The notes under the pieces are model-generated. The model was given only the letters and a program-made list of their open reading frames with translations, had not been told where the DNA came from and searched no databases. A program made the translations under genes and the position numbers. This document shows, in pieces, positions 2,976-63,656 of a stretch of DNA of 64,000 nt (the stretch's first letter is position 1; the number at the start of each line of letters is the position of its first letter). The stretch lies in assembly GCA_964016885.1 (NCBI GenBank), contig OZ024741.1, forward strand, positions 69,874,001 through 69,938,000, written 5' to 3'. Origin of the DNA: Eledone cirrhosa. Its lineage: Eukaryota.

Positions 2976-4109
2976 AAAAGGTGAAAGTGAAAATTGAGAG
3001 AGACAAAGATGAACGGCATATATATATATATATATACACATATATATCTTTCGTATATATATACATATATATACATATATATACGAAATTACTCGGAGTG
3101 ACTTGCTTTGCCCCGGTCCCACCGCGCCACCTGTTTTGGCCGCCATATTATACTTATACCTATAAACTCCAGGTTTAGGCATAACTATTAGCTGTATCAT
3201 GCCTGGCACGTAAATAAACCCCTCATGCGTGATTTAATAATATTCGTTTGGTATAGACGATGGCCTGTCGAAATTGTGGAGTTCCCGCTCGCGCTCCCGG
3301 GGCCTAAGGTAGCTACGTTCCTAGAATACTCGGAAAAATTAATTTCCATTTCTTTCGCTGGACGATACCACTCGAGACTGGCTGACTCATGGTGGTGGTG
3401 GTTGGGGGGGGGGGGGTGCTGGCTGGGACTCGCAATCGAAATCTTTACTCTATATCCCATCCTAATATCTTATCGAGATAAATTTTTTCATATAAGACTC
3501 TCTCCGTAAGTTCATTAAATAAATCTCGCTACCTTAACCTTTAATTTTCTAATAACTTATTTTTCAATTTATCATTTTGCAATTTAATATTTTTAATTTA
3601 ATTTAATTTCATCCTATAACTCGCAACATAAGTTTAACGTTCCAATCTTCGGTTTACACATTAGACCATACAGACACCCATTATAGATTCTTTGGAGTAG
3701 CATTTTTTCGCGGCATTTTCTAGCATGAATGTAGTGTGACCCTTACGCTGACTTCTTTCTCCCTTTCTTTCTTCCCCTTTTTCTTTGACGGAGAGGTGGT
3801 AGTGCATTATAAGCCTTCGCCCCCTCACCAGATGTTCATTAGTAGATTCAGTTGCCACCACTATGAGGGCGACTGGCCGAGATAAAGGCAGCTAGTTGGT
3901 CAGTCGTCCTCTTTGTCTCTGTCTCTGATTTTTCGGACCCATAGTTTTTTACATATTCCTTTGTTATATTCCAATACCTGATGATATCACCGGATTCATA
4001 TGGAACCCGGTCATTGAAATGATCATAGTATAATAAACCTTTCAAGTATTTACACCAGTCCAGCCACCTGTTATTTTATTTTATTTATATAATATATATA
4101 TATATATAT

Positions 4110-8960: not shown

Positions 8961-11283
8961 TTAGATTGGTCCGATTTTTAGAGCATTAAGTAGGGGTTGG
9001 AATTTGTTAATTAAATATGTTTCCTTATTGGTACGTTGGATGAAAGTAGCGTTGTCTATGAATTTGTAAATGGGGAAAATTTTAAAGTTTGGATGTTGGT
9101 TGTGAACACAATTGGCGATATGTTCACTAAATGCAATCTTTCTGTATTCCTGTATTTTAATTTGTGATTTATGGACGGTCATACGTTGACGGAGGCAGTT
9201 TTTTGTCTGTCCTATGTAGTGCTCTTGACAACCTGAGCAGGTCAAAACATAGATTAGGTTTTTAGATGCACATGTAAAGTTGTGTTCAATTGTGAAATGT
9301 TGTCCTTGTTTAAAATGGAATGTTGAACCTTCTATTAGATTTATGCATATGCCACAGTTGGGCCTTCCGCATTTTGTTACTGTAGGGTTTATTGTGAGGG
9401 TTTGTTGGATTTTGGATTGTGTGAGGATGTTTTTTATGGATTTAGGTTGTCTTTTGCTCTTTATGATGTTGTGTGTTTGGAGGATTCTTGGGTCTCTTTT
9501 TAGTAAAGGAATGTTCTGGAGGATGGTGTCGAATGCCTCATTGTTGAGGGGGTTGTGTGTGGAGATTTATAGTAGAGTTTTTTGTTGTGGTTCATTCTTG
9601 GATTTGGGGTGTCTGAGTTCCTGGATGTCTAGTTTTAGGGCACGTTGGAATCCATTGTTGATTAGGGAAGGTGGGTAGTTTCTGCTGATAAGTGTGTTTT
9701 TTAATTCTTTTAGTCGTGTGTAACATGTGTATTTATCTGAAACTATTGTGCAGATCCTTCTGGCTAGGTTATAAGGAATTGCCATTTTGGTGTGCTACGG
9801 TGGCACGAGTTGAATGGAAGGTATTGTTTGGAGTCTGCGAGTTTGTAGTATATGTCTGTTTCTATTTTGTTGCTTGTTTTCTTGATGAGAACTTCGAGGA
9901 AAGGGAGTTGTTCATGGCTGTAAACCATTGTGAATTGTATGTTTGTGTTGAGCCCATTCAGAAGGGTTTTAAACTCAAACAGTCTATCTATACTTTCGTG
10001 CCAGAGGATGAAGAAGTCGTCCAGATATCTCTTCCAGTTCTTTTCTATGTGTTGGTAGAAGTGGTTGCTGTATTTGTCTAGAACTTTGCGGTAGAGAGTG
10101 GTTTCCAAATATCCCATGACAAGGTTGGCGTATGAGGGGGCCACTTTCGTGCCCATGGCAGTCCCAGATTTCTGTCTGTAGTATTTGGCATTGAATTGTT
10201 TTCCAAGATGAATTTGAGTCCCCCCAACACAAATTCTTTAGGGATGCGCTGTGGGAGTTCACTAGGGAAATTTTCCATCCAGAATTGTATTGCCTCTATA
10301 CCTAGGTTGTGTGGGATATTGGAATATAAATTGATGACATCAAAGGTTACTAGTAGGGTATGTTCATTATTGAGTGTTGTTGGGAGGTGGTTGAGCATGT
10401 CAAGTTCGTCCCTTATGAAGCTTTTTATGTGTTTTAGGAAAGGTTTAAGCAGAATATCTAGGAAGTTGCTTAGGCGGTGGGTTTCACATGTGGTGCCTGC
10501 TATTATGGGTCTTAATTTAAGGTCATCAGGAGGGGCTATATTGATGTAAACGTCTGTGGCTTGCTTGCAGGCCCTACTTATTACTTCGCTTTTGTGTGTC
10601 TTGAGGATACCGTAGAAGAGGCTGGTTCTGCTTTTGAAATTTGTGATGTAGTTGTATTCCTTGTCTGTAAAGCCTTCTTTGTAAAGGGTTGTTAGGGATT
10701 TTAGGTTTCTCATTATTTTCTGTTGTGTGTAGTGTTGGGCCTTTTCATAATATGTTTGGTTTTCTAGAGTTGAGAGTACTAGAGTTGTGTAATAATCTGT
10801 CTCCATAAGGACTACTGCACCCCCTTTATCTGCCTCTTTGATTGTTAGGGTTTTGTCGTTTGTTAGACTGTTAAGACCATTCCATTCTTTTTTGCTTAGG
10901 TTTGGTTTTTGTTTATGTCTGTGTAGGTGATGGTATGGGTAATTAGTAATGTGTTCGCAGAATTGATCGAGGAATTTATTCTTGCCTTTTGGTGGGGTGT
11001 AGTTGCTTCTATTTCTGGCTATTGAGTCATCCTCATTGTATTTGTCGTATAGTTGTTCGCTGAGTCTTAGTTTTCTACAGAATTCTGCAATATCTTCCTT
11101 CATTTCGGGGTAGTTTGGTTGTTGGGGAGTTGGTGTAAATTTTAGACCTTTGGAGAGTATGTTGATTTGGTCTATTGTTAATTCTTTAGAGATTAAATTA
11201 ACAATTTTTATTGCATTTTGTGTCTCCTGTGTGTTTTGTGTTATCTTGTAATCCTGTGTCTGTGTGCTGTGTCTAAAAAATGA
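8961..11283 (-). pseudogene. PLE RT + GIY-YIG endonuclease ORF, disrupted
   Basis: Frame open from 11283; frameshifts near 10195 and 9795; in-frame TAA at 9567-9569. Confidence 0.88.
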
Positions 11284-12829
11284 TTACGCAAGTTGTGATG
11301 GCTGTTGAAGTTTGGATGTCTCTTATAGTTGTATTGGCCCCTGCTGTTGTTGTAAGATGGTGTGTAGCTGTGGTGGTTGTTGAGTTTAGGTTGTATCGTG
11401 TGGTTGTATTGAGCCCTGCTGATGTTGTTGTAGGGTGTGTAGATTTGATGGACGTGGTTATAGGGTGTGAAGTTGTGGTGGTTGTTGAAGTTGGGTTGTA
11501 TCGTATGGTTGTGTTGAGCACTGCTGTTGTTGTAGGGTGTGTAGACTTGTTGGTAGTTGTAGTAGGGTTGTCTTGTGTGGTCATATTGAGTCCTGTTGTT
11601 GCTGTTATATGGTATGTAGCTATGGTGGTTGTAGTGGTTAGGGTGTCTCGTGTGGTTGTATTGTCCCTTGCTGGTGTTGTAGTAGGATGTAGTTAGTGGG
11701 GGAGGGTAGATTAGGGTTTCCTTATAGCTGGTGTATGGTTGTGAGGCCCTGTGTGCCATGTGTGGTAGTTGTGTATTTTGGGTTCTATGATGGAAGTAAT
11801 GATGGCTGTGGGTTTGTTGTGTGGGGATGTTAGGGGGTTTGTAAGTGTGGGGATTTTATGGTTTCTCCTGGTGGGAGAGAAGTTGTAGTGTCTATCTTGT
11901 AGCTGATGTTTCTCTATTACTATATTTGTTGCTTGGGAGTCCGTGTGGTAGTTGTGTGGAGGATGTAGGAGGTAGGGGCGAGGTGATGCCTTCTTTTGTT
12001 GGTATGTGGGGAGGTATTGTTTTTTTGTTGTTGTTGGTTGTTGTGTGGTGTTTGGGTGTTGATTGAGTTTTCTTGTTATTATGGTTTTAATGAAGGGGTT
12101 CTTGGATATGTGTACTTTTTGGAAAAGTGTTTCATAGTTAGAGAACCAGGTTTCGTTTATTTCCAAGCGTTGAAGGGATTTTAATTCTTCCTTATTACAG
12201 TCCTCTAACCATAATTTTGAAATATTTTCTTGGGTGGTGTCTTTGGTTATATTGATAATTGCTAGATTAATCTCATCGTCGATTGATTTGATCCTATCTT
12301 CATTTGCTTGGGCTCTCAATTTAAGGAGTTCAATTTCGGTTTTTATGATATCAAGTGCCATTCTTTCCCTGAGGCGTCTTTGTGTCTCTGGTTCGTTTGG
12401 GATGGATTTAATTTGTAGTTTGCGGGGGATGATTAATGGGGAAGAGTTAATCCATTTTTCATAGATCTCCGCTTTGTTATTGTTTTGTATCATCTTCCAA
12501 AAGGAGAATTTCCTGTTATTAAGAGATGTGTGCCATTGTGGTATTAATTTGTTTTTTATTTGGTAAGTTGTAAGTATATTAGTGTCATGTGTTTTTTCGT
12601 TCGTTTGAATAGGGTTTGTGTTGTTATTCAGGTGTGTTTTTATTGTTTCACATAAGTTGTTGATATTGTCGTTGATTTCATAGGATGTGTATTTGGGGAT
12701 TGTTTCTTCATTTGTAGAGTTTAGTTTGTTGGTGAGTATTGACAAATTAGAGTTTATTTTTTGTAGTTCTTGGAGTATCTCTTGATTGATGCTAATGAGA
12801 GTGGAGTCTGTTTTTGTTTTAGTAGACAT
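11241..12829 (-). pseudogene. Putative PLE upstream ORF1 (coiled-coil N part, His/Tyr/Asn-rich repeats), split by one frameshift
   Basis: Overlapping ORFs 11711-12829 (372 aa) and 11241-11759 (172 aa) directly 5' of the RT frame, same strand. Confidence 0.6.
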
Positions 12830-12990
12830 TTTCTGTGTCTCGAGTGGGAGTGAATAATAATAATAATTTAAGAATAAACAGGGGCTGTGTAGTGGCTGGA
12901 TAAGGTGTACTTATAAAAAGAGGAAAGCAAGAACAGGATAACATTTTCCTTCATCAGTTGTCTGCTGGGGGTCTTGGACATTTCAACGCA

Positions 12991-23993: not shown

Positions 23994-24639
23994 CAGAAAT
24001 TTGAGGGAAGAGCAAACTTGATGAAATCAACTCCAGTACTTGACTGGCAATTTATTTTATCAATCCCGGAAGGATGAAAAGCTACGTTGATCTTAGCAGG
24101 ATTTGAATTCAGGATGTAAAGAATCAGAACAAATATCGCAATGATATCTTATCCGACTGACGCTCTAGCAATTTTGTCAATTCGCCACCTTTGAGTTTTA
24201 CATATATATTGTGTGTACTTGGTAAGCCGAGGGGTCTAATTGGGAGCAATTAGTCCAATTTGCTTAAGTCCGACCTAGTCATACCAGACATAACTAGACC
24301 CCCAGGGACCGTCTTCAGGGGTGCAGGGTCGAAATGGGTGTTACATAGAAATTTCAATGTGTTGGTGTGTTTATTTGCGAAACCGAGAGTGAGGCTGAAA
24401 TTTCAAGAACATTTCTGGAGGTAGAAAAATTAAGATGTCGGCGGAAAGAGACCGGACCGAGTATGTGGTCCGAATGGTGCTTATCACGTAGTGAACTTCG
24501 AGTAACATCTTGCAGCCTTTCGATATCAGCCCACGCATGAATACTCCTGCTTCTATGATAAAGAAAAAAAACCATCTGTCGATATTTGAAAATATTCATA
24601 CGTAAATTAAAATCTTCAATTATACTTTTATATAAGAAC

Positions 24640-25320
24640 TTTTAAATATTTTTGTAGAATGGCTGACTTACCTACATTTCGATGTGGAAATGTTTACCCG
24701 AAATACGTTCGAAATTTGTTACAAGACAAACTCGAAAATAAACAGGCGGCACATAATGGGAACCAGCAGTCCGGGAAAAAGCTACATATTGCGTTCTATA
24801 AGAAATGGATTCATGAATTGTAGAAGGATGCGCTGCCAAACATCCGATAACTTCTCATTCAGCAGTTGTATTGATAAGACATTAATATACACTGACGAAA
24901 TGCGGTTCACCACAAACAACATAGAAGAAGCCAAATGTATACACGAAAGCTCTCCAACACAAGTCAACATAAAACATTATCCGGAAAGAATATTTAAAAG
25001 AACGCCATATCTCAGTACTAGCAATACAGAGCCATGGAACATTGTAATGAATGAAAAGAATGCCATTCTCCACAGGATATATTTCTATGAAACTTTCAAA
25101 CCAATGCCAAAACTTAAAGAATGGGGGATGGTAGAACTGAATCCCTTAATGTGGCTAACAGTTTGGAAAGACTACATTAATAAGTTCATTGCTAAAAAAT
25201 ATACCAAATATACATGACCAGCGAAACTCAGAAACCAACAAAACGATTCCTATATGATGATCTACAATCACCAGAAAAGAAAAGAAAAATATCAGAAGTT
25301 AGGAAACAACTTGAATTCAA
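24640..25320 (+). pseudogene. Endogenous parvoviral NS1 (SF3 helicase) fragment
   Basis: Walker A GTSSPGKS, Walker B LIYTDE, B' KCIHES..VNIKH, motif C TPYLSTSN in ORF 24684-25217; basic PEKKRK downstream in another frame. Confidence 0.75.
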
Positions 25321-27264: not shown

Positions 27265-28117
27265 AAACCTTTCTAAAGATTTCTATTTCCAATAGTCGAT
27301 ATGGGGCTGTTGAGTGATTCGAACCTTTCTAAAGATTTCTATTTCAAATAGTCGATATGGGGCTGTTGAGTGATTCGAACCTTTCTAAAGATTTCTATTT
27401 CCAATAGTCGATATGGGGCTGTTGAGTGATTCGAACCTTTCTAAAGATTTCTATTTCCAATAGTCGATATGGGGCTGTTGAGTGATTCGAACCTTTCTAA
27501 AGATTTCTATTTCAAATAGTCGATATGGGGCTGTTGAGTGATTCGAACCTTTCTAAAGATTTCTATTTCCAATAGTCGATATGGGGCTGTTGAGTGATTC
27601 GAACCTTTCTAAAGATTTCTATTTCAAATAGTCGATATGGGGCTGTTGAGTGATTCGAACCTTTCTAAAGATTTCTATTTCAAATAGTCGATATGGGGCT
27701 GTTGAGTGATTCGAACCTTTCTAAAGATTTCTATTTCCAATAGTCGATATGGGGCTGTTGAGTGATTCGAACCTTTCTAAAGATTTCTATTTCAAATAGT
27801 CGATATGGGGCTGTTGAGTGATTCGAACCTTTCTAAAGATTTCTATTTCCAATAGTCGATATGGGGCTGTTGAGTGATTCGAACCTTTCTAAAGATTTCT
27901 ATTTCCAATAGTCGATATGGGGCTGTTGAGTGATTCGAACCTTTCTAAAGATTTCTATTTCAAATAGTCGATATGGGGCTGTTGAGTGATTCGAACCTTT
28001 CTAAAGATTTCTATTTCAAATAGTCGATATGGGGCTGTTGGGTGATTCGAACCTTTCTAAAGATTTCTATTTCCAATAGTCGATATGGGGCTGTTCAACT
28101 CGAGTTGAGTGATTCGA
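27265..28117. repeat. 56-bp minisatellite, 15 units
   Basis: GAACCTTTCTAAAGATTTCTATTTC(C/A)AATAGTCGATATGGGGCTGTTGAGTGATTC in direct tandem, no spacers. Confidence 0.97.
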
Positions 28118-29904: not shown

Positions 29905-32392
29905 TATAAGTATGTACACGTACATACATATATGTATACAGACGTACAGTAGTATGTATATATATATACATACATGCACACATATATATATGTATGTATG
30001 GATTCACCGAACATTTATTATAATGCTCGGTGTGTTTGTAAACAAACATCCCGTATTAAGCCGTAGTGTCTAGTAACCATCGCTGCTCGTTTTTTCAACA
30101 CTGATAAAGGAACGCTGTACTAGTTTCAAGCTTATTAGCTATCGTCAGCAACGTATACCTTCCTGCCAGATTGTTGAACGTATATACTTACCTTATGCAT
30201 ATTAACGCCTGAGTAGCCCAATTTGCATATCGAGTGGGTTAATCAGCCGGGTGGACCGAAAACGATAAACGGAAAAAAATGAAACGAAATTTCATTTCCC
30301 ACTCTTAGTACGGCTGTTACTTAAATATAAGTAGGTACACGTACATACATATATGTATACAGACGTACAGTAGTATGTATATATATATATACATACATGC
30401 ACACATATATATATGTACGTATGGATTCACCGAACATTTATTATAATGCTCGGTGTGTTTGTAAACAAATATCCCGTATTAAGCCGTAGTGTCTAGTAAT
30501 CATCGTTGCTCGTTTGTTCAACACTGACAAAGGAACGCTGTACTAGTTTCAAGCTTATTAGCTATCGTCAGCAACGTATACCTTCCTGCCAGATTGTTGA
30601 ACGTATATACTTACCTTATGCATATTAACAGCTGAGTAGCCCAATTTGCATATCGAGTGGGTTAGTCGGCCGGGTGCACCGAAAACGATAAACGGAAAAA
30701 ATGAAACGAAATTTCATTTCCCACTCTTAGTACGGCTGTTACTTAAATATAAGTATGTACTCAGCCGTTAATATGCATAAGGTAAGTATATACGTTCAAC
30801 AATCTGGCAGGAAGGTATACGTTGCTGACGATAGCTAATAAGCTTGAAACTAGTACAGCGTTCCTTTGTCAGTGTTGAACAAACGAGCAACGATGGTTGC
30901 TAGAGACTACGGCTTAATAAGGGATCTTTGTTTACAAACACACCGAGCATTATAATAAATGTTCGGTGAATCCATACGTACATATATATATGTGTGCATG
31001 TATGTATATATATATATACATACTACTGTACGTCTGTATACATATATGTATGTACGTGTACATACTTATATTTAAGTAACAGCCGTACTAAGAGTGGGAA
31101 ATGAAATTTCGTTTCATTTTTTCCGTTTATCGTTTTCGGTGCACCCGGCCGATTAACCCACTCGATATGAAAATTGGGCTACTCAGGCGTTAATATGCAT
31201 AAGGTAAGTATATACGTTCAACAATCTGCCAGGAAGGTATACGTTGCTGACGATAGCTAATAAGCTTGAAACTAGTACAGCGTTCCTTTGTCAGTGTTGA
31301 ACAAACGAGCAACGATGGTTACTAGACACTACGGCTTAATACGGGATGTTTGTTTACAAACACACCGAGCATTATAATAAATGTTCGGTGAATCCATACG
31401 TACATATATATATGTGTGCATGTATGTATATATATATATACATACTACTGTACGTCTGTATACATATATGTATGTACGTGTACATACTTATATTTAAGTA
31501 ACAGCCGTACTAAGAGTGGGAAATGAAATTTCGTTTCATTTTTTCCGTTTATCGTTTTCGGTGCACCCGGCCGATTAACCCACTCGATATGAAAATTGGG
31601 CTACTCAGGCGTTAATATGCATAAGGTAAGTATATACGTTCAACAATCTGCCAGGAAGGTATACGTTGCTGACGATAGCTAATAAGCTTGAAACTAGTAC
31701 AGCGTTCCTTTGTCAGTGTGAACAAACGAGCAACGATGGTTGCTAGACACTACGGCTTAATACGGGATGCTTGTTTACAAACACACCGAGCATTATAATA
31801 AATGTTCGGTGAATCCATACGTACATATATATATGTGTGCATGTATGTATATATATATACATACTACTGTACGTCTGTATACATATATGTATGTACGTGT
31901 ACATACTTATATTTAAGTAACAGCCGTACTAAGAGTGGGAAATGAAATTTCGTTTCATTTTTTCCGTTTATCGTTTTCGGTGCACCCGGCCGATTAACCC
32001 ACTCGATGTACAAATTGGGCTACTCAGCCGTTAATATGCATAAGGTAAGTATATACGTTCAACAATCTGGCAGGAAGGTATACGTTGCTGACGATAGCTA
32101 ATAAGCTTGAAACTAGTACAGCGTTCCTTTGTCAGTGTTGAACAAACGAGCAACGATGGTTACTAGACACTACGGCTTAATACGGGATGTTTGTTTACAA
32201 ACACACCGAGCATTATAATAAATGTTCGGTGAATCCATACGTACATATATATATGTGTGCATGTATGTATATATATATATACATACTACTGTACGTCTCT
32301 ATACATATATGTATGTACGTGTACATACTTATATTTAAGTAACAGCCGTACTAAGAGTGGGAAATGAAATTTCGTTTCATTTTTTCCGTTTA
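29905..32392. repeat. Array B: head-to-head array of a ~421-bp HHR unit (2 minus + ~3.9 plus units)
   Basis: Inversion at 30758-30760 (TAC microhomology); HHR cores at 30142 and 30565 (-), 30825, 31247, 31669, 32088 (+). Confidence 0.95.
30819..30861 (+). ncRNA. Type I HHR, array B representative (6 copies)
   Basis: ACGTTG-CTGACGA-T-AGCT-AATA-AGCT-T-GAAA-CTAG-TA-CAGCGT; stem I extends (AGGA/TCCT, TGGCA/TGTCA, GTTCAACA/TGTTGAAC). Confidence 0.82.
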
Positions 32393-32881
32393 TATATATA
32401 TATTAACATATATACACATGTCTGCATATATATATATATAAAGTGAGTTATATTTCGTCTTAATATCATATGGCAAAACACCATTTGATTGGTTTGTTCT
32501 TCAGCTACCTCCAAATAAGGTAATAGAACTCAATTTACTATTGACTTTGAATAAAATTTTCATTGCTTTTGACAACGGCTGACGATATACACGTAGGTAA
32601 ATATATTCCTTATTTGATATTTTGTAACTAACCTTACATAGATAGATAACGAAATATGCGTACGATGTATTATTATCACGTAGAAACGATCGTAAAGCAA
32701 TGAAGTATATTTCTAATGACCTGAATTTTTATTTCATTGTTTTAACTTATATCATGACTCTGTTTTCCTTTTGATATTTTATTGTTTTCCGGGATTTATT
32801 TTAACCTACAACATTTTCAACATATGGATTACATTGAGTTCTTCATGCAGACTAGACCCCACAATAAACCGTGGATATTTC

Positions 32882-35399: not shown

Positions 35400-35512
35400 C
35401 CAAGAAGAAAAATAAAATTTCGTTTGTGTAGGTCAAATCAAGTACTCACTAAGAAGTTGTTTAACTAACTGCTTTGCTTAATTTGTTTTATTTTAATTTT
35501 ATTATTATTTTA

Positions 35513-37901
35513 TTAAACAATTAAGTTAAAGATGTACATCCATATATGTATACTGAAATACTAGTATGTATATGAATACACACACGTATACATATGTAGA
35601 TGTACCAAGTTTTTTCACTGGTCACTTTACTGTGAGTGGCCAGCTATTCTGTATGTAAACACACAGACAAACCGGTTTTTAGAGTCATACTGGTTTTTGA
35701 GGAAACACCTTTCCTCTATTCTCCAGAAAGCCAGACAAGGAATATTGAACTAGTTTCGTTGTTGTTACAACTCATCAGCAATATTTACCTATCTTCCGGC
35801 CTCTCTAGAGAATCGTAAAAGCACATATCGTTATATGCTTTTTCTATGAAAATTAGTAGTGGGCATACTAATTTGCATAGAGTGTGAGTAAGTACCGGTT
35901 CAACGGAGACGATAAAAACAAATAACGAAACGAAATTAAATTTTGTTTCATTTGTAACTCACTTTTGTATGACTGACGCTTAAACAATTAAGTTAAAGAT
36001 GTACATCCATATATGTATACTGAAATACTAGTATGTATATGAATACACACACGTATACATATGTAGATGTACCAAGTTTTTTCACTGGTCACTTTACTGT
36101 GAGTGGCCAGCTATTCTGTATGTAAACACACAGACAAACCGGTTTTTAGAGTCATACTGGTTTTTGAGGAAACACCTTTCCTCTATTCTCCAGAAAGCCA
36201 GACAAGGAATATTGAACTAGTTTCGTTGTTGTTACAACTCATCAGCAATATTTACCTATCTTCCGGCCTCTCTAGAGAATCGTAAAAGCACATATCGTTA
36301 TATGCTTTTTCTATGAAAAGTGACCAGTGAAAAAACTTGGTACATCTACATATGTATACGTGTGTGTATTCATATACATACTAGTATTTCAGTATACATA
36401 TATGGATGTACATCTTTAACTTAATTGTTTAAGCGTCAGTCATACAAAAGTGAGTTACAAATGAAACAAAATTTAATTTCGTTTCGTTATTTGTTTTTAT
36501 CGTCTCCGTTGAACCGGTACTTACTCACACTCTATGCAAATTAGTATGCCCACTACTAATTTTCATAGAAAAAGCATATAACGATATGTGCTTTTACGAT
36601 TCTCTAGAGAGGCCGGAAGATAGGTAAATATTGCTGATGAGTTGTAACAACAACGAAACTAGTTCAATATTCCTTGTCTGGCTTTCTGGAGAATAGAGGA
36701 AAGGTGTTTCCTCAAAAACCAGTATGACTCTAAAAACCGGTTTGTCTGTGTGTTTACATACAGAATAGCTGGCCACTCACAGTAAAGTGACCAGTGAAAA
36801 AACTTGGTACATCTACATATGTATACGTGTGTGTATTCATATACATACTAGTATTTCAGTATACATATATGGATGTACATCTTTAACTTAATTGTTTAAG
36901 CGTCAGTCATACAAAAGTGAGTTACAAATGAAACAAAATTTAATTTCGTTTCGTTATTTGTTTTTATCGTCTCCGTTGAACCGGTACTTACTCACACTCT
37001 ATGCAAATTAGTATGCCCACTACTAATTTTCATAGAAAAAGCATATAACGATATGTGCTTTTACGATTCTCTAGAGAGGCCGGAAGATAGGTAAATATTG
37101 CTGATGAGTTGTAACAACAACGAAACTAGTTCAATATTCCTTGTCTGGCTTTCTGGAGAATAGAGGAAAGGTGTTTCCTCAAAAACCAGTATGACTCTAA
37201 AAACCGGTTTGTCTGTGTGTTTACATACAGAATAGCTGGCCACTCACAGTAAAGTGACCAGTGAAAAAACTTGGTACATCTACATATGTATACGTGTGTG
37301 TATTCATATACATACTAGTATTTCAGTATACATATATGGATGTACATCTTTAACTTAATTGTTTAAGCGTCAGTCATACAAAAGTGAGTTACAAATGAAA
37401 CAAAATTTAATTTCGTTTCGTTATTTGTTTTTATCGTCTCCGTTGAACCGGTACTTACTCACACTCTATGCAAATTAGTATGCCCACTACTAATTTTCAT
37501 AGAAAAAGCATATAACGATATGTGCTTTTACGATTCTCTAGAGAGGCCGGAAGATAGGTAAATATTGCTGATGAGTTGTAACAACAACGAAACTAGTTCA
37601 ATATTCCTTGTCTGGCTTTCTGGAGAATAGAGGAAAGGTGTTTCCTCAAAAACCAGTATGACTCTAAAAACCGGTTTGTCTGTGTGTTTACATACAGAAT
37701 AGCTGGCCACTCACAGTAAAGTGACCAGTGAAAAAACTTGGTACATCTACATATGTATACGTGTGTGTATTCATATACATACTAGTATTTCAGTATACAT
37801 ATATGGATGTACATCTTTAACTTAATTGTTTAAGCGTCAGTCATACAAAAGTGAGTTACAAATGAAACAAAATTTAATTTCGTTTCGTTATTTGTTTTTA
37901 T
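35513..37901. repeat. Array C: head-to-head array of a 467-bp HHR unit (1.7 minus + 3.4 plus units)
   Basis: Exact 467 period; inversion at 36317-36319 (AAA); direct repeat TTATTATTTTATT at 35502-35514 and 37898-37910. Confidence 0.96.
36627..36671 (+). ncRNA. Type I HHR, array C representative (also 37094-37138 and 37561-37605 +; 35741-35785 and 36208-36252 -)
   Basis: AATATTG-CTGATGA-GTTGT-AACA-ACAAC-GAAA-CTAG-TT-CAATATT: canonical core, perfect stems I and II, palindromic stem III, GUU site. Confidence 0.92.
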
Positions 37902-38466
37902 TATTTTATTGTTTCTGATATTTTCTTCTAAAGTACTATCATATACAATTGTTTATTTTAAAGTGTTTTTAATTATTTAAAAATCTTCCATCATAATTTT
38001 ATATAAGAACACTTGTTAAGTTATGATCTAAAGACCAAATAAATAACGAAAAAGTGAATTATTTTACTGCTGTTGTTGGACCTTCGTCTGCGAAGCTGAA
38101 GGACGACTGGAACTTCTACGTTGTATCTTCTACTAGTTGGCAAAAAGAGAAGCACAATTCTTCTTGGAGCGAGGGGTTTGATCTCTGAACAGCCTGCGCC
38201 ATTTAAAATTAGCAGTTACACAATTATATAATCAGCAGTTTTACTACTACACCACTGAGACTGTTCAAATTGCTAAACATTTTAAAAGTTATATTGTAAA
38301 TATTAACCTTTCGAATTTCTATAGTCTTACCTACTTTACACTTACGTTCGGATTTGCTTATATATATATATATAGTTGTAAGGTTGCAATAAATGCGCCC
38401 GTAGGCGGTATGCCGTTTGAGCACTCGATGCTCAGGCAGAGCAGAGTATATGCCTTGAAAACGATA

Positions 38467-54018: not shown

Positions 54019-54486
54019 TCATAAGCAATAAAATTCGTGTATTACAACTGAACATGTTAAGCATTCAACGACACAACACCAGTTAAATTTGCAATTGCAT
54101 CGCTCATTGGAAATCCTCTGCTGAGTTCTGTAACCACGCCCACAACACAGTAGGTCACAACCGTCAATCGCTTTCGAAGTTAAGTTGCATAACCGGCCAT
54201 GAGTGCCTGGAATGCCGATCGTAGGGATAGGTTCACAGAAGTCTGGAGATACCATCAAATAAACCAAGTCCTCCTGTGTGTGAGGCTTGAATTTGGGATT
54301 CATTGGAACTAATAATTTCTTAGTTCCTTTATTCTTCTTACGAACTTCTGTCGCTCCGTCGAATTTCTCTTTTATTATCTCACCAACTTCCCGAAACGAA
54401 CGAATCGCTCGCCAGCAGGTTCGCATTTCACATGTACCCGACACTCCATGGCATTTACACTGAATTTTCATATGGTTCTCAATTGC
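54019..54486 (-). CDS. Wnt4: Last coding exon of a Wnt4 orthologue
   Basis: [66 protein letters not shown]; phase-0 acceptor TTTTGTAG|GCA at 54487/54486; TGA at 54019-54021. Confidence 0.93.
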
Positions 54487-61451: not shown

Positions 61452-62650
61452 TTATACTTCTCTTAGGTCAGTGTTGTTTGTTTGGGTGTTGTTGTTATTC
61501 CATTCATTCTTTCTGTTTAGTCTTGGTCTTCTAATTTCTACTTCACTGGCCTCTCTGATTTGCCTATCTGCTGGGTCATTTCTATGTTTAGATATTATTC
61601 TAATTTCTATGTTGTCTATGTTACCGTCATGTTGTTGTCTAGCATGTTCGTATAGTACTGACCCGTTTTTTCGTCCTTTTAGTTTCCCCCAGTGTTGGTC
61701 TATCCTTTCACTTATGCTACGAGCTGTCTCACCTATGTATGTTGTTGTCATGTTTCTGCAAGTACCCTCTGTACATCTTATGCTATAGACTACGTTTCTA
61801 GTTTTACAGTTTATCCGGGGGTTTACCTTACATATGATACATTTCCTATTGGTGCAGTGGGTTTTCTTAAAAGGGTAGGTTTTGCTGATCAGGGATTTTA
61901 TGGTGGTTCCTGGCTTTTCTACCACCTTAATTTTTAAGTGGGTCTTTCTCAGGGCCTTTCTACACTGGTTAGCTAATTTCCCTCCAGGGGTAGCGCCCAC
62001 AAACATGACACTCTGGTATCTCTGGTTGTCGTACCATGAGGTGGCTTTCCCTATCTTATGTCTAGCCCTATCTAAGCTATTCCATGATTTGCTCCTGTAT
62101 AATGGGCAAATTCCTTTCATGTCCAGTTCTATGAGGGTCTTATACTTCTCCATGGCTCCTTCGTATACTCTGACCCTGTCTCTTTGGTTGTAGCCAGAGA
62201 ACTGCATGCGGTTGATGAAGTGTTGGATGTGTTTTTCCATTTCTGTTGGGTCGCACATGCGGGACACATTCTTCATCACTCGTACTAAATCTGCGATCAG
62301 AATATTAAACTTAGCACTACTGGACATTGCTGAGTTTTTGAGTATCAGGTATTTAGAGGCCATGGGTTTAGCATAGTGTGAGTGGAGAATATGGGCTCTC
62401 TCGTCTATAGTGCTAATCCAGAGTTCTGTGTCTAATACAGGTAGTTTATTGTTAGGGTGTTTGGAGAGGAAGTCGATAGTTAGAGTTATACTCTGGTGTA
62501 TGGAATTAGCTATCTGCTGGATGCTTTCCATCGTGCTATGTTCTAAATCAAACTTGTTAGTGCTCTCTAGTGGGGGTGTTCTTATAACTATATTGATATC
62601 GTCTACATAACGAGAGTACATGATGTAACTATCGACTTCCCCTCCAAACA
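61452..62650 (-). CDS. PLE RT C-terminal part + GIY-YIG endonuclease (5'-truncated, frame intact)
   Basis: RYVDD, LPVLD, KPMAS, SGY, CTNRKCIIC, NVVYSIRC..YIGETAR..RIDQH..EH..H..RQIREA. Confidence 0.88.
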
Positions 62651-63656
62651 CCCTAACAATAAACTACCTGTATTAGACACAGCACTCTGGATTAACACTA
62701 TAGACGAGAGAGCCCATATTCTCCACTCACACTATGCTAAACCCATGGCCTCCAATTACCTGATACTCAAAAACTCAGCAATGTCCAGTAGTGCTAAGTT
62801 TAATATTCTGATCGCAGATTTGGTACGAGTGATGAAGAATGTGTCCCGCATGTGCGACCCAACAGAAATGGAAAAACACATCCAACACTTCATCAACCGC
62901 ATGCAGTTCTCTGGCTACAACCAAAGAGACAGAGTCAGAGTATACGAAGGAGCCATGGAAAAGTATAAGACCCTCATAGAACTGGACATGAAAGGAATTT
63001 GCCCACTATACAGGAGCAAATCATGGAATAGCTTAGATAGGGCTAGACATAAGATAGGGAAAGCCACCTCATGGTACGACAACCAGAGATACCAGAGTGT
63101 CATGTTTGTGGACGCTACCCCTGGAGGGAAATTAGCTAACCAGTGTAGAAAGGCCCTGAGAAAGACCCACTTAAAAATTAAGGTGGTAGAAAAGCCAGGA
63201 ACCACCATAAAATCCCTGATCAGCAAAACCTACCCTTTTAAGAAAACCCACTGCACCAATAGGAAATGTATCATATGTAAGGTAAACCCCCGGATAAACT
63301 GTAAAACTAGAAACGTAGTCTATAGCATAAGATGTACAGAGGGTACTTGCAGAAACATGACAACAACATACATAGGTGAGACAGCTCGTAGCATAAGTGA
63401 AAGGATAGACCAACACTGGGGGGAACTAAAAGGACGAAAAAACGGGTCAGTACTATACGAACATGCTAGACAACAACATGACGGTAACATAGACAACATA
63501 GAAATTAGAATAATATCTAAACATAGAAATGACCCAGCAGATAGGCAAATCAGAGAGGCCAGTGAAGTAGAAATTAGAAGACCAAGACTAAACAGAAAGA
63601 ATGAATGGAATAACAACAACACCCAAACAAACAACACTGACCTAAGAGAAGTATAA
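62643..63656 (+). CDS. Inverted second copy of the PLE thumb + GIY-YIG region (5'-truncated)
   Basis: ORF 62745-63656 nearly identical to the minus arm (K/N, G/D, K/E differences). Confidence 0.88.
   Translation, partial: SKHPNNKLPVLDTALWINTIDERAHILHSHYAKPMASNYLILKNSAMSSSAKFNILIADLVRVMKNVSRMCDPTEMEKHIQHFINRMQFSGYNQRDRVRVYEGAMEKYKTLIELDMKGICPLYRSKSWNSLDRARHKIGKATSWYDNQRYQSVMFVDATPGGKLANQCRKALRKTHLKIKVVEKPGTTIKSLISKTYPFKKTHCTNRKCIICKVNPRINCKTRNVVYSIRCTEGTCRNMTTTYIGETARSISERIDQHWGELKGRKNGSVLYEHARQQHDGNIDNIEIRIISKHRNDPADRQIREASEVEIRRPRLNRKNEWNNNNTQTNNTDLREV

Follow-up and report, generated by a model that had tools for sequence, protein, structure and literature searches.

A two-armed hammerhead array and the machinery that may have inserted it

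The locus considered here, array C, lies in a 64-kb window (the whole stretch of DNA that was analysed) and poses a plain question: what kind of event places two opposed arms of one 467-nt unit, with a hammerhead motif in every unit, between the two copies of a single short target duplication? The answer proposed, from comparison of the locus with its siblings in the genome, is that array C is probably a non-LTR retrozyme inserted by the enzyme of a Penelope-like element (PLE), that the target was primed on both sides, and that the template was probably one circular RNA monomer.

Architecture of array C and its hammerheads

The arms of array C, listed in Table 1, point outward, overlap by three nucleotides (AAA) and are 100% identical to one 467-nt unit. 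The flanking duplication, TTATTATTTTATT, has two bases in common with the left arm and four in common with the right, and its exact matches in the 64-kb window are only two, at 35502 and 37898. The first-pass annotation had described two arms of identical units with an exact 467-nt period, five hammerheads and a 13-bp duplication around the whole inverted structure, and on each of these points it was right: there are no mismatches to the single unit, three hammerhead cores lie on the plus strand and two on the minus strand, and the duplication occurs exactly twice in the window. It had also put the junction of the RNA at GUU (36664/36665), where the sequence does read GUU|C, the cut itself being a prediction.

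Table 1 Features of array C. Positions are those of the window. Unit phase is counted from the cleavage site, phase 1 being the base after the predicted cut.
Feature	Position	Strand	Remarks
Target duplication, left copy	35502..35514	.	13 nt; final 2 nt also belong to the left arm
Left arm	35513..36319	-	807 nt, 1.73 units; outer end at site A, phase 235
Type I hammerhead, identical copy, left arm	35719..35812	-	core 35754-35778
Complete monomer	35748..36214	-	between predicted cuts
Type I hammerhead, identical copy, left arm	36186..36279	-	core 36221-36245
Inner junction	36317..36319	.	3-nt microhomology AAA; phases 363 and 120
Right arm	36317..37901	+	1,585 nt, 3.39 units; outer end at site B, phase 303
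ATGCAAAT word in hairpin	36534..36541	+	once per unit; in most aligned monomers of related families
Type I hammerhead, extended stem I	36600..36693	+	core 36634-36658; predicted cut after GUU, 36664
Complete 467-nt monomer	36665..37131	+	between two predicted cuts
Type I hammerhead, identical copy	37067..37160	+	core 37101; predicted cut after 37131
Complete monomer	37132..37598	+	between predicted cuts
Type I hammerhead, identical copy	37534..37627	+	core 37568; predicted cut after 37598
68-nt "tail"	37834..37901	+	stretch from site A to site B; terminal on the right end only
Target duplication, right copy	37898..37910	.	leading 4 nt also belong to the right arm

The units, joined head to tail, have a GC content of 161/467, and array C could, if cut as predicted, release three full monomers. 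No stop-to-stop ORF of 120 aa runs across the array, which is without an ORF encoding RT and GIY-YIG, and the arm ends displayed lead into another unit, the opposed arm or flanking DNA. Around array C lies an older repeat that it interrupts; paralogues of that repeat continue from the left flank into the right one, which shows that the two flanks belong together, and they are too diverged to give the size of the duplication. A search of the assembly for a second copy of the locus, as an empty site, returned none, and run X1 passes over the left flank as a repeat. Elsewhere the window holds an exon of a Wnt gene (54019-54486, minus strand; Pfam wnt, E 4.7e-61), a 56-bp tandem array (27266-28095; 14.8 copies, 98% matches) and a 193-aa open frame, helicase-like by eye (24636-25217).

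The hammerhead had been called canonical and perfect, a description that survives in part. The stem I pairings appear, together with stem II, in the predicted fold (z -4.7), and there the perfection ends: the match to Rfam HH9 (37.7 bits, E 1.2e-6) falls below the gathering score of 52, no Rfam family is matched at the gathering threshold, and stem III in the monomer amounts to 2 bp with a 2-nt loop, which does not form in the minimum-energy folds of either the monomer or two copies. Nor was a dimer fold through the ACUAGU palindrome recovered as the minimum-energy structure. (The miRNA matches in the sub-threshold Rfam search were rejected as microsatellite noise.) The hammerhead of array C belongs to the short-stem-III kind and is predicted to cleave as a dimer; dimeric cleavage of hammerheads with a weak helix III is described in the available part of PMC7761336. 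The stems are supported by covariation in six hammerheads from related families, where both partners have changed in 6 of 14 pairs and pairing holds in 92.9% of cells, as against 46% at most in any slid control; with six sequences, few and related, this counts as support and not as a probability. The 467-nt circle as a whole is predicted, and only predicted, to fold at -145.3 kcal/mol (z -9.6 against 60 shuffles).

The word ATGCAAAT in a hairpin of the unit may be an octamer, a promoter word of the snRNA type; a literature search on that idea turned up no relevant paper. At one locus (G000:C1:30.83 Mb; L286, L287) three array-wide A>G changes lie within this conserved word, which would thereby be lost from all copies.

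Start sites, target and junctions in the family

Array C belongs to a large family. Exact counts in the 3.0-Gb genome give 6,113 cores of the 467-nt family and 2,444 site-B end junctions, and hammerhead motifs of this group number 39,227 against 1 for the control. Array C, with 0 variants in 2,360 aligned positions, is by its sequence a very young copy of a family inserted at thousands of places in the genome. Run X2 has almost none of the alleles that it carries at phases 265, 271 and 349, so that it falls in a very young sub-lineage; among the 31 non-mosaic loci of top identity, seven, array C included, show no fixed difference from its unit. The first-pass annotation had ranked it as the best candidate for an active element, a putative rank for one among thousands of insertions. 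Runs X4, X5 and X6, of unrecorded kind and hence not taken as a sign of expression, yield clean head-to-tail or cyclic contigs over the unit, one of them, in X4, being 497 nt long with GUC at the triplet.

The comparisons that follow rest mainly on 34 elements, including array C, taken from regions around the best 150 of 300 matches; the set is selected for high identity and may count loci twice where unplaced contigs duplicate chromosomal loci. Their outer arm ends are fixed, 34 of 66 lying at site A (phase 227-236) and 28 at site B (301-304), so that two sites some 69 nt from each other account for 62 of the 66. The inner ends of these 66 arms are scattered, with no significant departure from uniformity (KS p 0.08) and no enrichment at the cleavage site (5/66, p 0.61). 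An A end on one side is combined with a B end on the other in 27 of the 34 elements. Thirty loci, taken in genome order and anchored on site B, comprised 14 scored A plus B, 6 in which the inverted arm was cut by the edge of the locus, 3 uninformative, 1 with another inverted end and 6 with no inverted arm. The two-armed form is common, not universal.

Targets are AT-rich and rich in (TA)n. Sixteen of the 34 flank pairs are pure (TA)n and hence uninformative and 4 have no duplication; at 13 of the 14 informative sites the duplication measures 12-14 nt. Short-read contigs from runs X1 and X2, which are one sample and possibly the assembly's own, have loose (TA)n ends at both site A and site B. 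Where the arms meet, 21 of the 30 two-arm junctions (one three-armed locus is omitted) show an overlap of 0-4 nt, 7 contain filler and 2 are palindromic, and the mean overlap in the 21 without filler is 1.6 nt as against 0.76 by chance (p 0.001). In one filler (L044) the first bases of the monomer are repeated several times, as if the enzyme had stuttered at a cleaved RNA end.

Arms reach 12.7 units among the top matches and 30.7 in one older array (G000:C1:5738093-5752746; L166, L167), in whose single arm variants recur at spacings of 2 to 7 units, with a compensatory stem II pair and the look of a higher-order structure. A 422-nt family ends at sites homologous to A and B. It has a member in the window, array B (29905-32393), with a homologous 422-nt unit, the same two-armed layout, homologous A and B ends, a GUA triplet and 98-99% identity.

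Non-integer arm lengths, previously read as the signal of rolling-circle copying, prove nothing alone. The informative signal is that outer ends are fixed while inner ends scatter, and this points to PLE machinery, of which the first-pass annotation said nothing. The footprint of the insertion suggests the PLEs as a class of candidate partner only. A young coding PLE of this genome (copies 98-99% identical, open frames up to 1,217 codons) shares with the retrozyme arrays its divergent arms, its one-sided tail, which in the PLE measures about 45-60 nt, and its (TA)n flanks. Among named proteins, the one nearest to a PLE protein of the genome carries the label Octopus vulgaris (72% identical), which makes the host probably an octopod. 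The end sequences of the young PLE bear no resemblance to the 467-nt unit, the displayed 3' regions of eight PLE families (900 nt per copy) contain no match to it other than microsatellite, and a search for a partner at 110 PLE loci (60 loci of two PLE families and 50 GIY-YIG loci) turned up nothing but separate insertions of retrozymes and matches to (TA)n.

PLE sequences are present in the window itself: an inverted pair of 3' fragments of the young coding family (61452-63656), with a tail that is the start of its own ORF, and an older, broken element with GIY-YIG and RT matches (8961-12910, minus strand). Hammerhead-like cores of other sequence types occur at 3978, 5373, 25921, 29482, 29668, 41564 and 61173, and cores of similar other types lie near PLE loci.

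The reaction that would account for this anatomy begins with transcription of an array and cutting by its hammerheads, probably as dimers via the ACUAGU palindrome, the monomers then being ligated into circles. A PLE endonuclease, judging from the footprint, would cut AT-rich DNA, usually (TA)n, with a stagger of 12-13 nt. Of the two 3' ends so exposed, one would start at site A (phase 229-235) and its partner at site B (302-303), in both cases with a match of a few bases to the target; the geometry of the A and B starts is read directly from the arm ends, and the priming chemistry is what I infer. Both enzymes would circle the template for a variable distance, after which the two cDNA 3' ends would join by 0-4 nt of microhomology or a short filler and template each other, so that the joined cDNAs would end as a head-to-head array inside one duplication.

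The nature of the template

Was that template one circle? If a single RNA molecule served both arms, then the arms should carry the same haplotype, and they do so at 30 of 31 loci, compared with a shuffled mean of 8.5 and maximum of 15 (since a site had to be covered by two or more arms to enter the test, short arms covered singly are under-tested). Across the 34 elements there is no variant that one arm has fixed and its counterpart lacks. Among the 31 non-mosaic loci there are 18 haplotypes, several of them fixed in 10-19 copies.

Changes private to a locus and found throughout its array have a direction as well. With variants polarised in 69 loci and read in the RNA sense, such changes comprise 10 A>G and 1 T>C (p 0.006); counted by locus the excess is 7 to 1, with a two-sided p, worked out by hand, of about 0.07. 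Variants in single units are symmetric (A>G 11, T>C 15), and a test for editing among shared minor alleles was null (15 versus 16). Eight of the 10 A>G sites have a predicted pairing of at least 0.87, where A positions as a whole average 0.60. At the locus at 30.83 Mb on G000:C1, the 18 complete units do not differ from one another; they carry an insertion of 1 nt and a cluster of three A>G changes, which lies in a predicted hairpin and is present in 19 of 19 copies. The sequence pattern suggests A-to-I editing as the cause of the A>G excess.

An unlikely alternative, though the one that fares best, keeps the same two-sided priming by a PLE and does away with the circle at this insertion, the template being an uncut linear multimer transcribed from a donor array, or a pair of transcripts from one donor. 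A homogeneous donor would equally give identical arms and scar-free joints between units; unprocessed RNA predominates as the substrate in vitro, according to the part of PMC11167929 available; and mosaic arrays with recurring unit variants exist (L032, L057, L048 and the 30.7-unit arm), unit order differing between the arms in L032 and L057. The mosaics are evidence that templates of several units, or rearrangement at a later stage, occur as well. Copying from linear RNA can make an array shorter and never longer, yet arrays that are both long and uniform, with 17-19 copies per site, are found in many different haplotypes, and the clustered A>G changes in 19/19 copies require a bottleneck of a single monomer at some generation. 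A private change could come from a uniform donor that was not sampled, in which case the single-monomer step would be moved one generation earlier and not removed.

Template jumping, in which the enzyme hops between or round cleaved linear monomers in place of a closed circle, has in its favour the stuttered filler at the inner end in L044, and hops between different monomers could make mosaics. Against it, 230 of 233 passes through the cleavage site are without difference within 10 nt and only 3 differ, inner ends are not enriched there, and most arrays hold one haplotype, all of which makes such hopping a distant prospect. More improbable still is amplification or fold-back at the DNA level (unequal exchange, hairpin self-priming) of a single-unit or short insertion, or an artefact of assembly, for which one may cite the two palindromic junctions of 30, a type read as self-priming in the accessible part of PMC3846280, the higher-order patterns of the 30-unit array and the use of assembled sequence with no spanning long read, and against which stand arms that end at different fixed sites while keeping a 12-14 nt duplication, a strand bias of A>G not expected from DNA processes, haplotypes that are locus-specific where polishing would make the copies converge on a single family sequence, and short-read contigs that show both types of end.

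The earlier idea of a recent retrozyme insertion copied from both ends is thus supported by the duplication, the shared haplotype and the fixed ends, and rolling-circle copying of one monomer, which it also proposed, stands as the most likely template reading. A fuller version of the circular reading is put forward tentatively, as a real possibility that falls somewhat short of an even bet: one ADAR-edited circular RNA would be read at the same time by two RTs, those of a Penelope dimer, which would set out from two fixed sites and run many laps each, with the cDNAs templating each other. If this were true, each insertion would be a multi-pass record of one RNA molecule, and retrozyme arrays and the inverted copy and tail of PLEs would be explained by one reaction.

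Array C beside known retrozymes and Penelope-like elements

By every structural test run, array C is a non-LTR retrozyme, one known here from DNA alone, whereas RNA and circles have been shown for published retrozymes in the portions of that literature at hand. Its units are non-coding, head to tail and below 50% GC, a type I hammerhead is present in each, and copies of the family are dispersed with duplications longer than 4 bp; all of this, with a single type I hammerhead to each low-GC unit, holds also for the metazoan non-LTR retrozymes in the available text of PMC7229834, PMC7761336 and 10.64898/2026.07.22.740005. A plant LTR retrozyme, with type III hammerheads in LTRs and a 4-bp duplication, was rejected as a class on account of the type I motif, the 13-nt duplication and the tandem units, and an autonomous or truncated PLE was rejected on account of the missing RT and GIY-YIG ORF. 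The published accounts, in the sections available, describe tandem arrays and nothing of two opposed arms, two fixed start sites, locus-wide haplotypes or marks of editing.

PLEs as mobilisers of retrozymes, with the circle as template for cDNA, are proposed in the available parts of PMC7229834, PMC7761336 and 10.64898/2026.07.22.740005. The last of these, in the portion at hand, reports that 24 of 57 Xenopus families have pLTR homology when compared with repeat entries, 21 of 22 of them PLEs; homology of this sort was absent for the 467-nt unit among the PLE loci sampled here.

To the side of PLE insertion array C brings an inverted truncated copy with a one-sided tail, two start sites and an AT-rich or (TA)n target. 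PLE insertions are described in the accessible text of 10.1101/2021.04.23.441226 and PMC3846280 as having a partial tandem, an inverted 5'-truncated copy, a tail on one end, a target duplication and AT-rich or (TA)n targets. The anole PLE, in the available part of PMC11167929, acts on both strands by cutting and extension, its tail is the stretch between two internal sites at which the RT starts, and in vitro it needs no hammerhead cleavage and uses mainly unprocessed RNA. Endonuclease-positive PLE insertions, so far as these accounts go, share with array C the tandem plus inverted copy, the one-end tail, the duplication and the AT-rich target. The retrozyme insertion differs from them, as described there, in having no ORF and, on either side, arms that hold many complete units; the tail of the 467-nt family is about 69 nt as against 30-40 bp; and its inner junction is mostly microhomology at random phase and not a palindrome.

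Twin priming by L1, in which both target strands prime cDNA and an inversion with microhomology arises inside one duplication, offers a further parallel. Array C differs from it in having no poly(A) tail and in a second start that is a fixed site, and L1 splits one linear RNA while the arms of array C instead overlap in sequence.

The two-armed, two-site anatomy was not found for any retrozyme in the literature surveyed, which included few subscription papers and, in part only, sources whose Figure S9 (PMC7229834) and tables (the preprint) may bear on it. Published work, in the parts available, proposes without showing it that animal retrozymes are moved by PLEs and that RNA circles are copied, and it calls the tandem, inverted and tailed form of PLEs unexplained. 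On both matters the 467-nt family gives genomic evidence in its exact start sites, the stagger of the cut, the chemistry of the junctions and the marks of single molecules. Its 467-nt RNA, combined with (TA)n as target and with an intact ORF of a PLE in this genome, such as that of 1,217 codons at about 340.21 Mb on G000:C4, would make a defined in vitro test.
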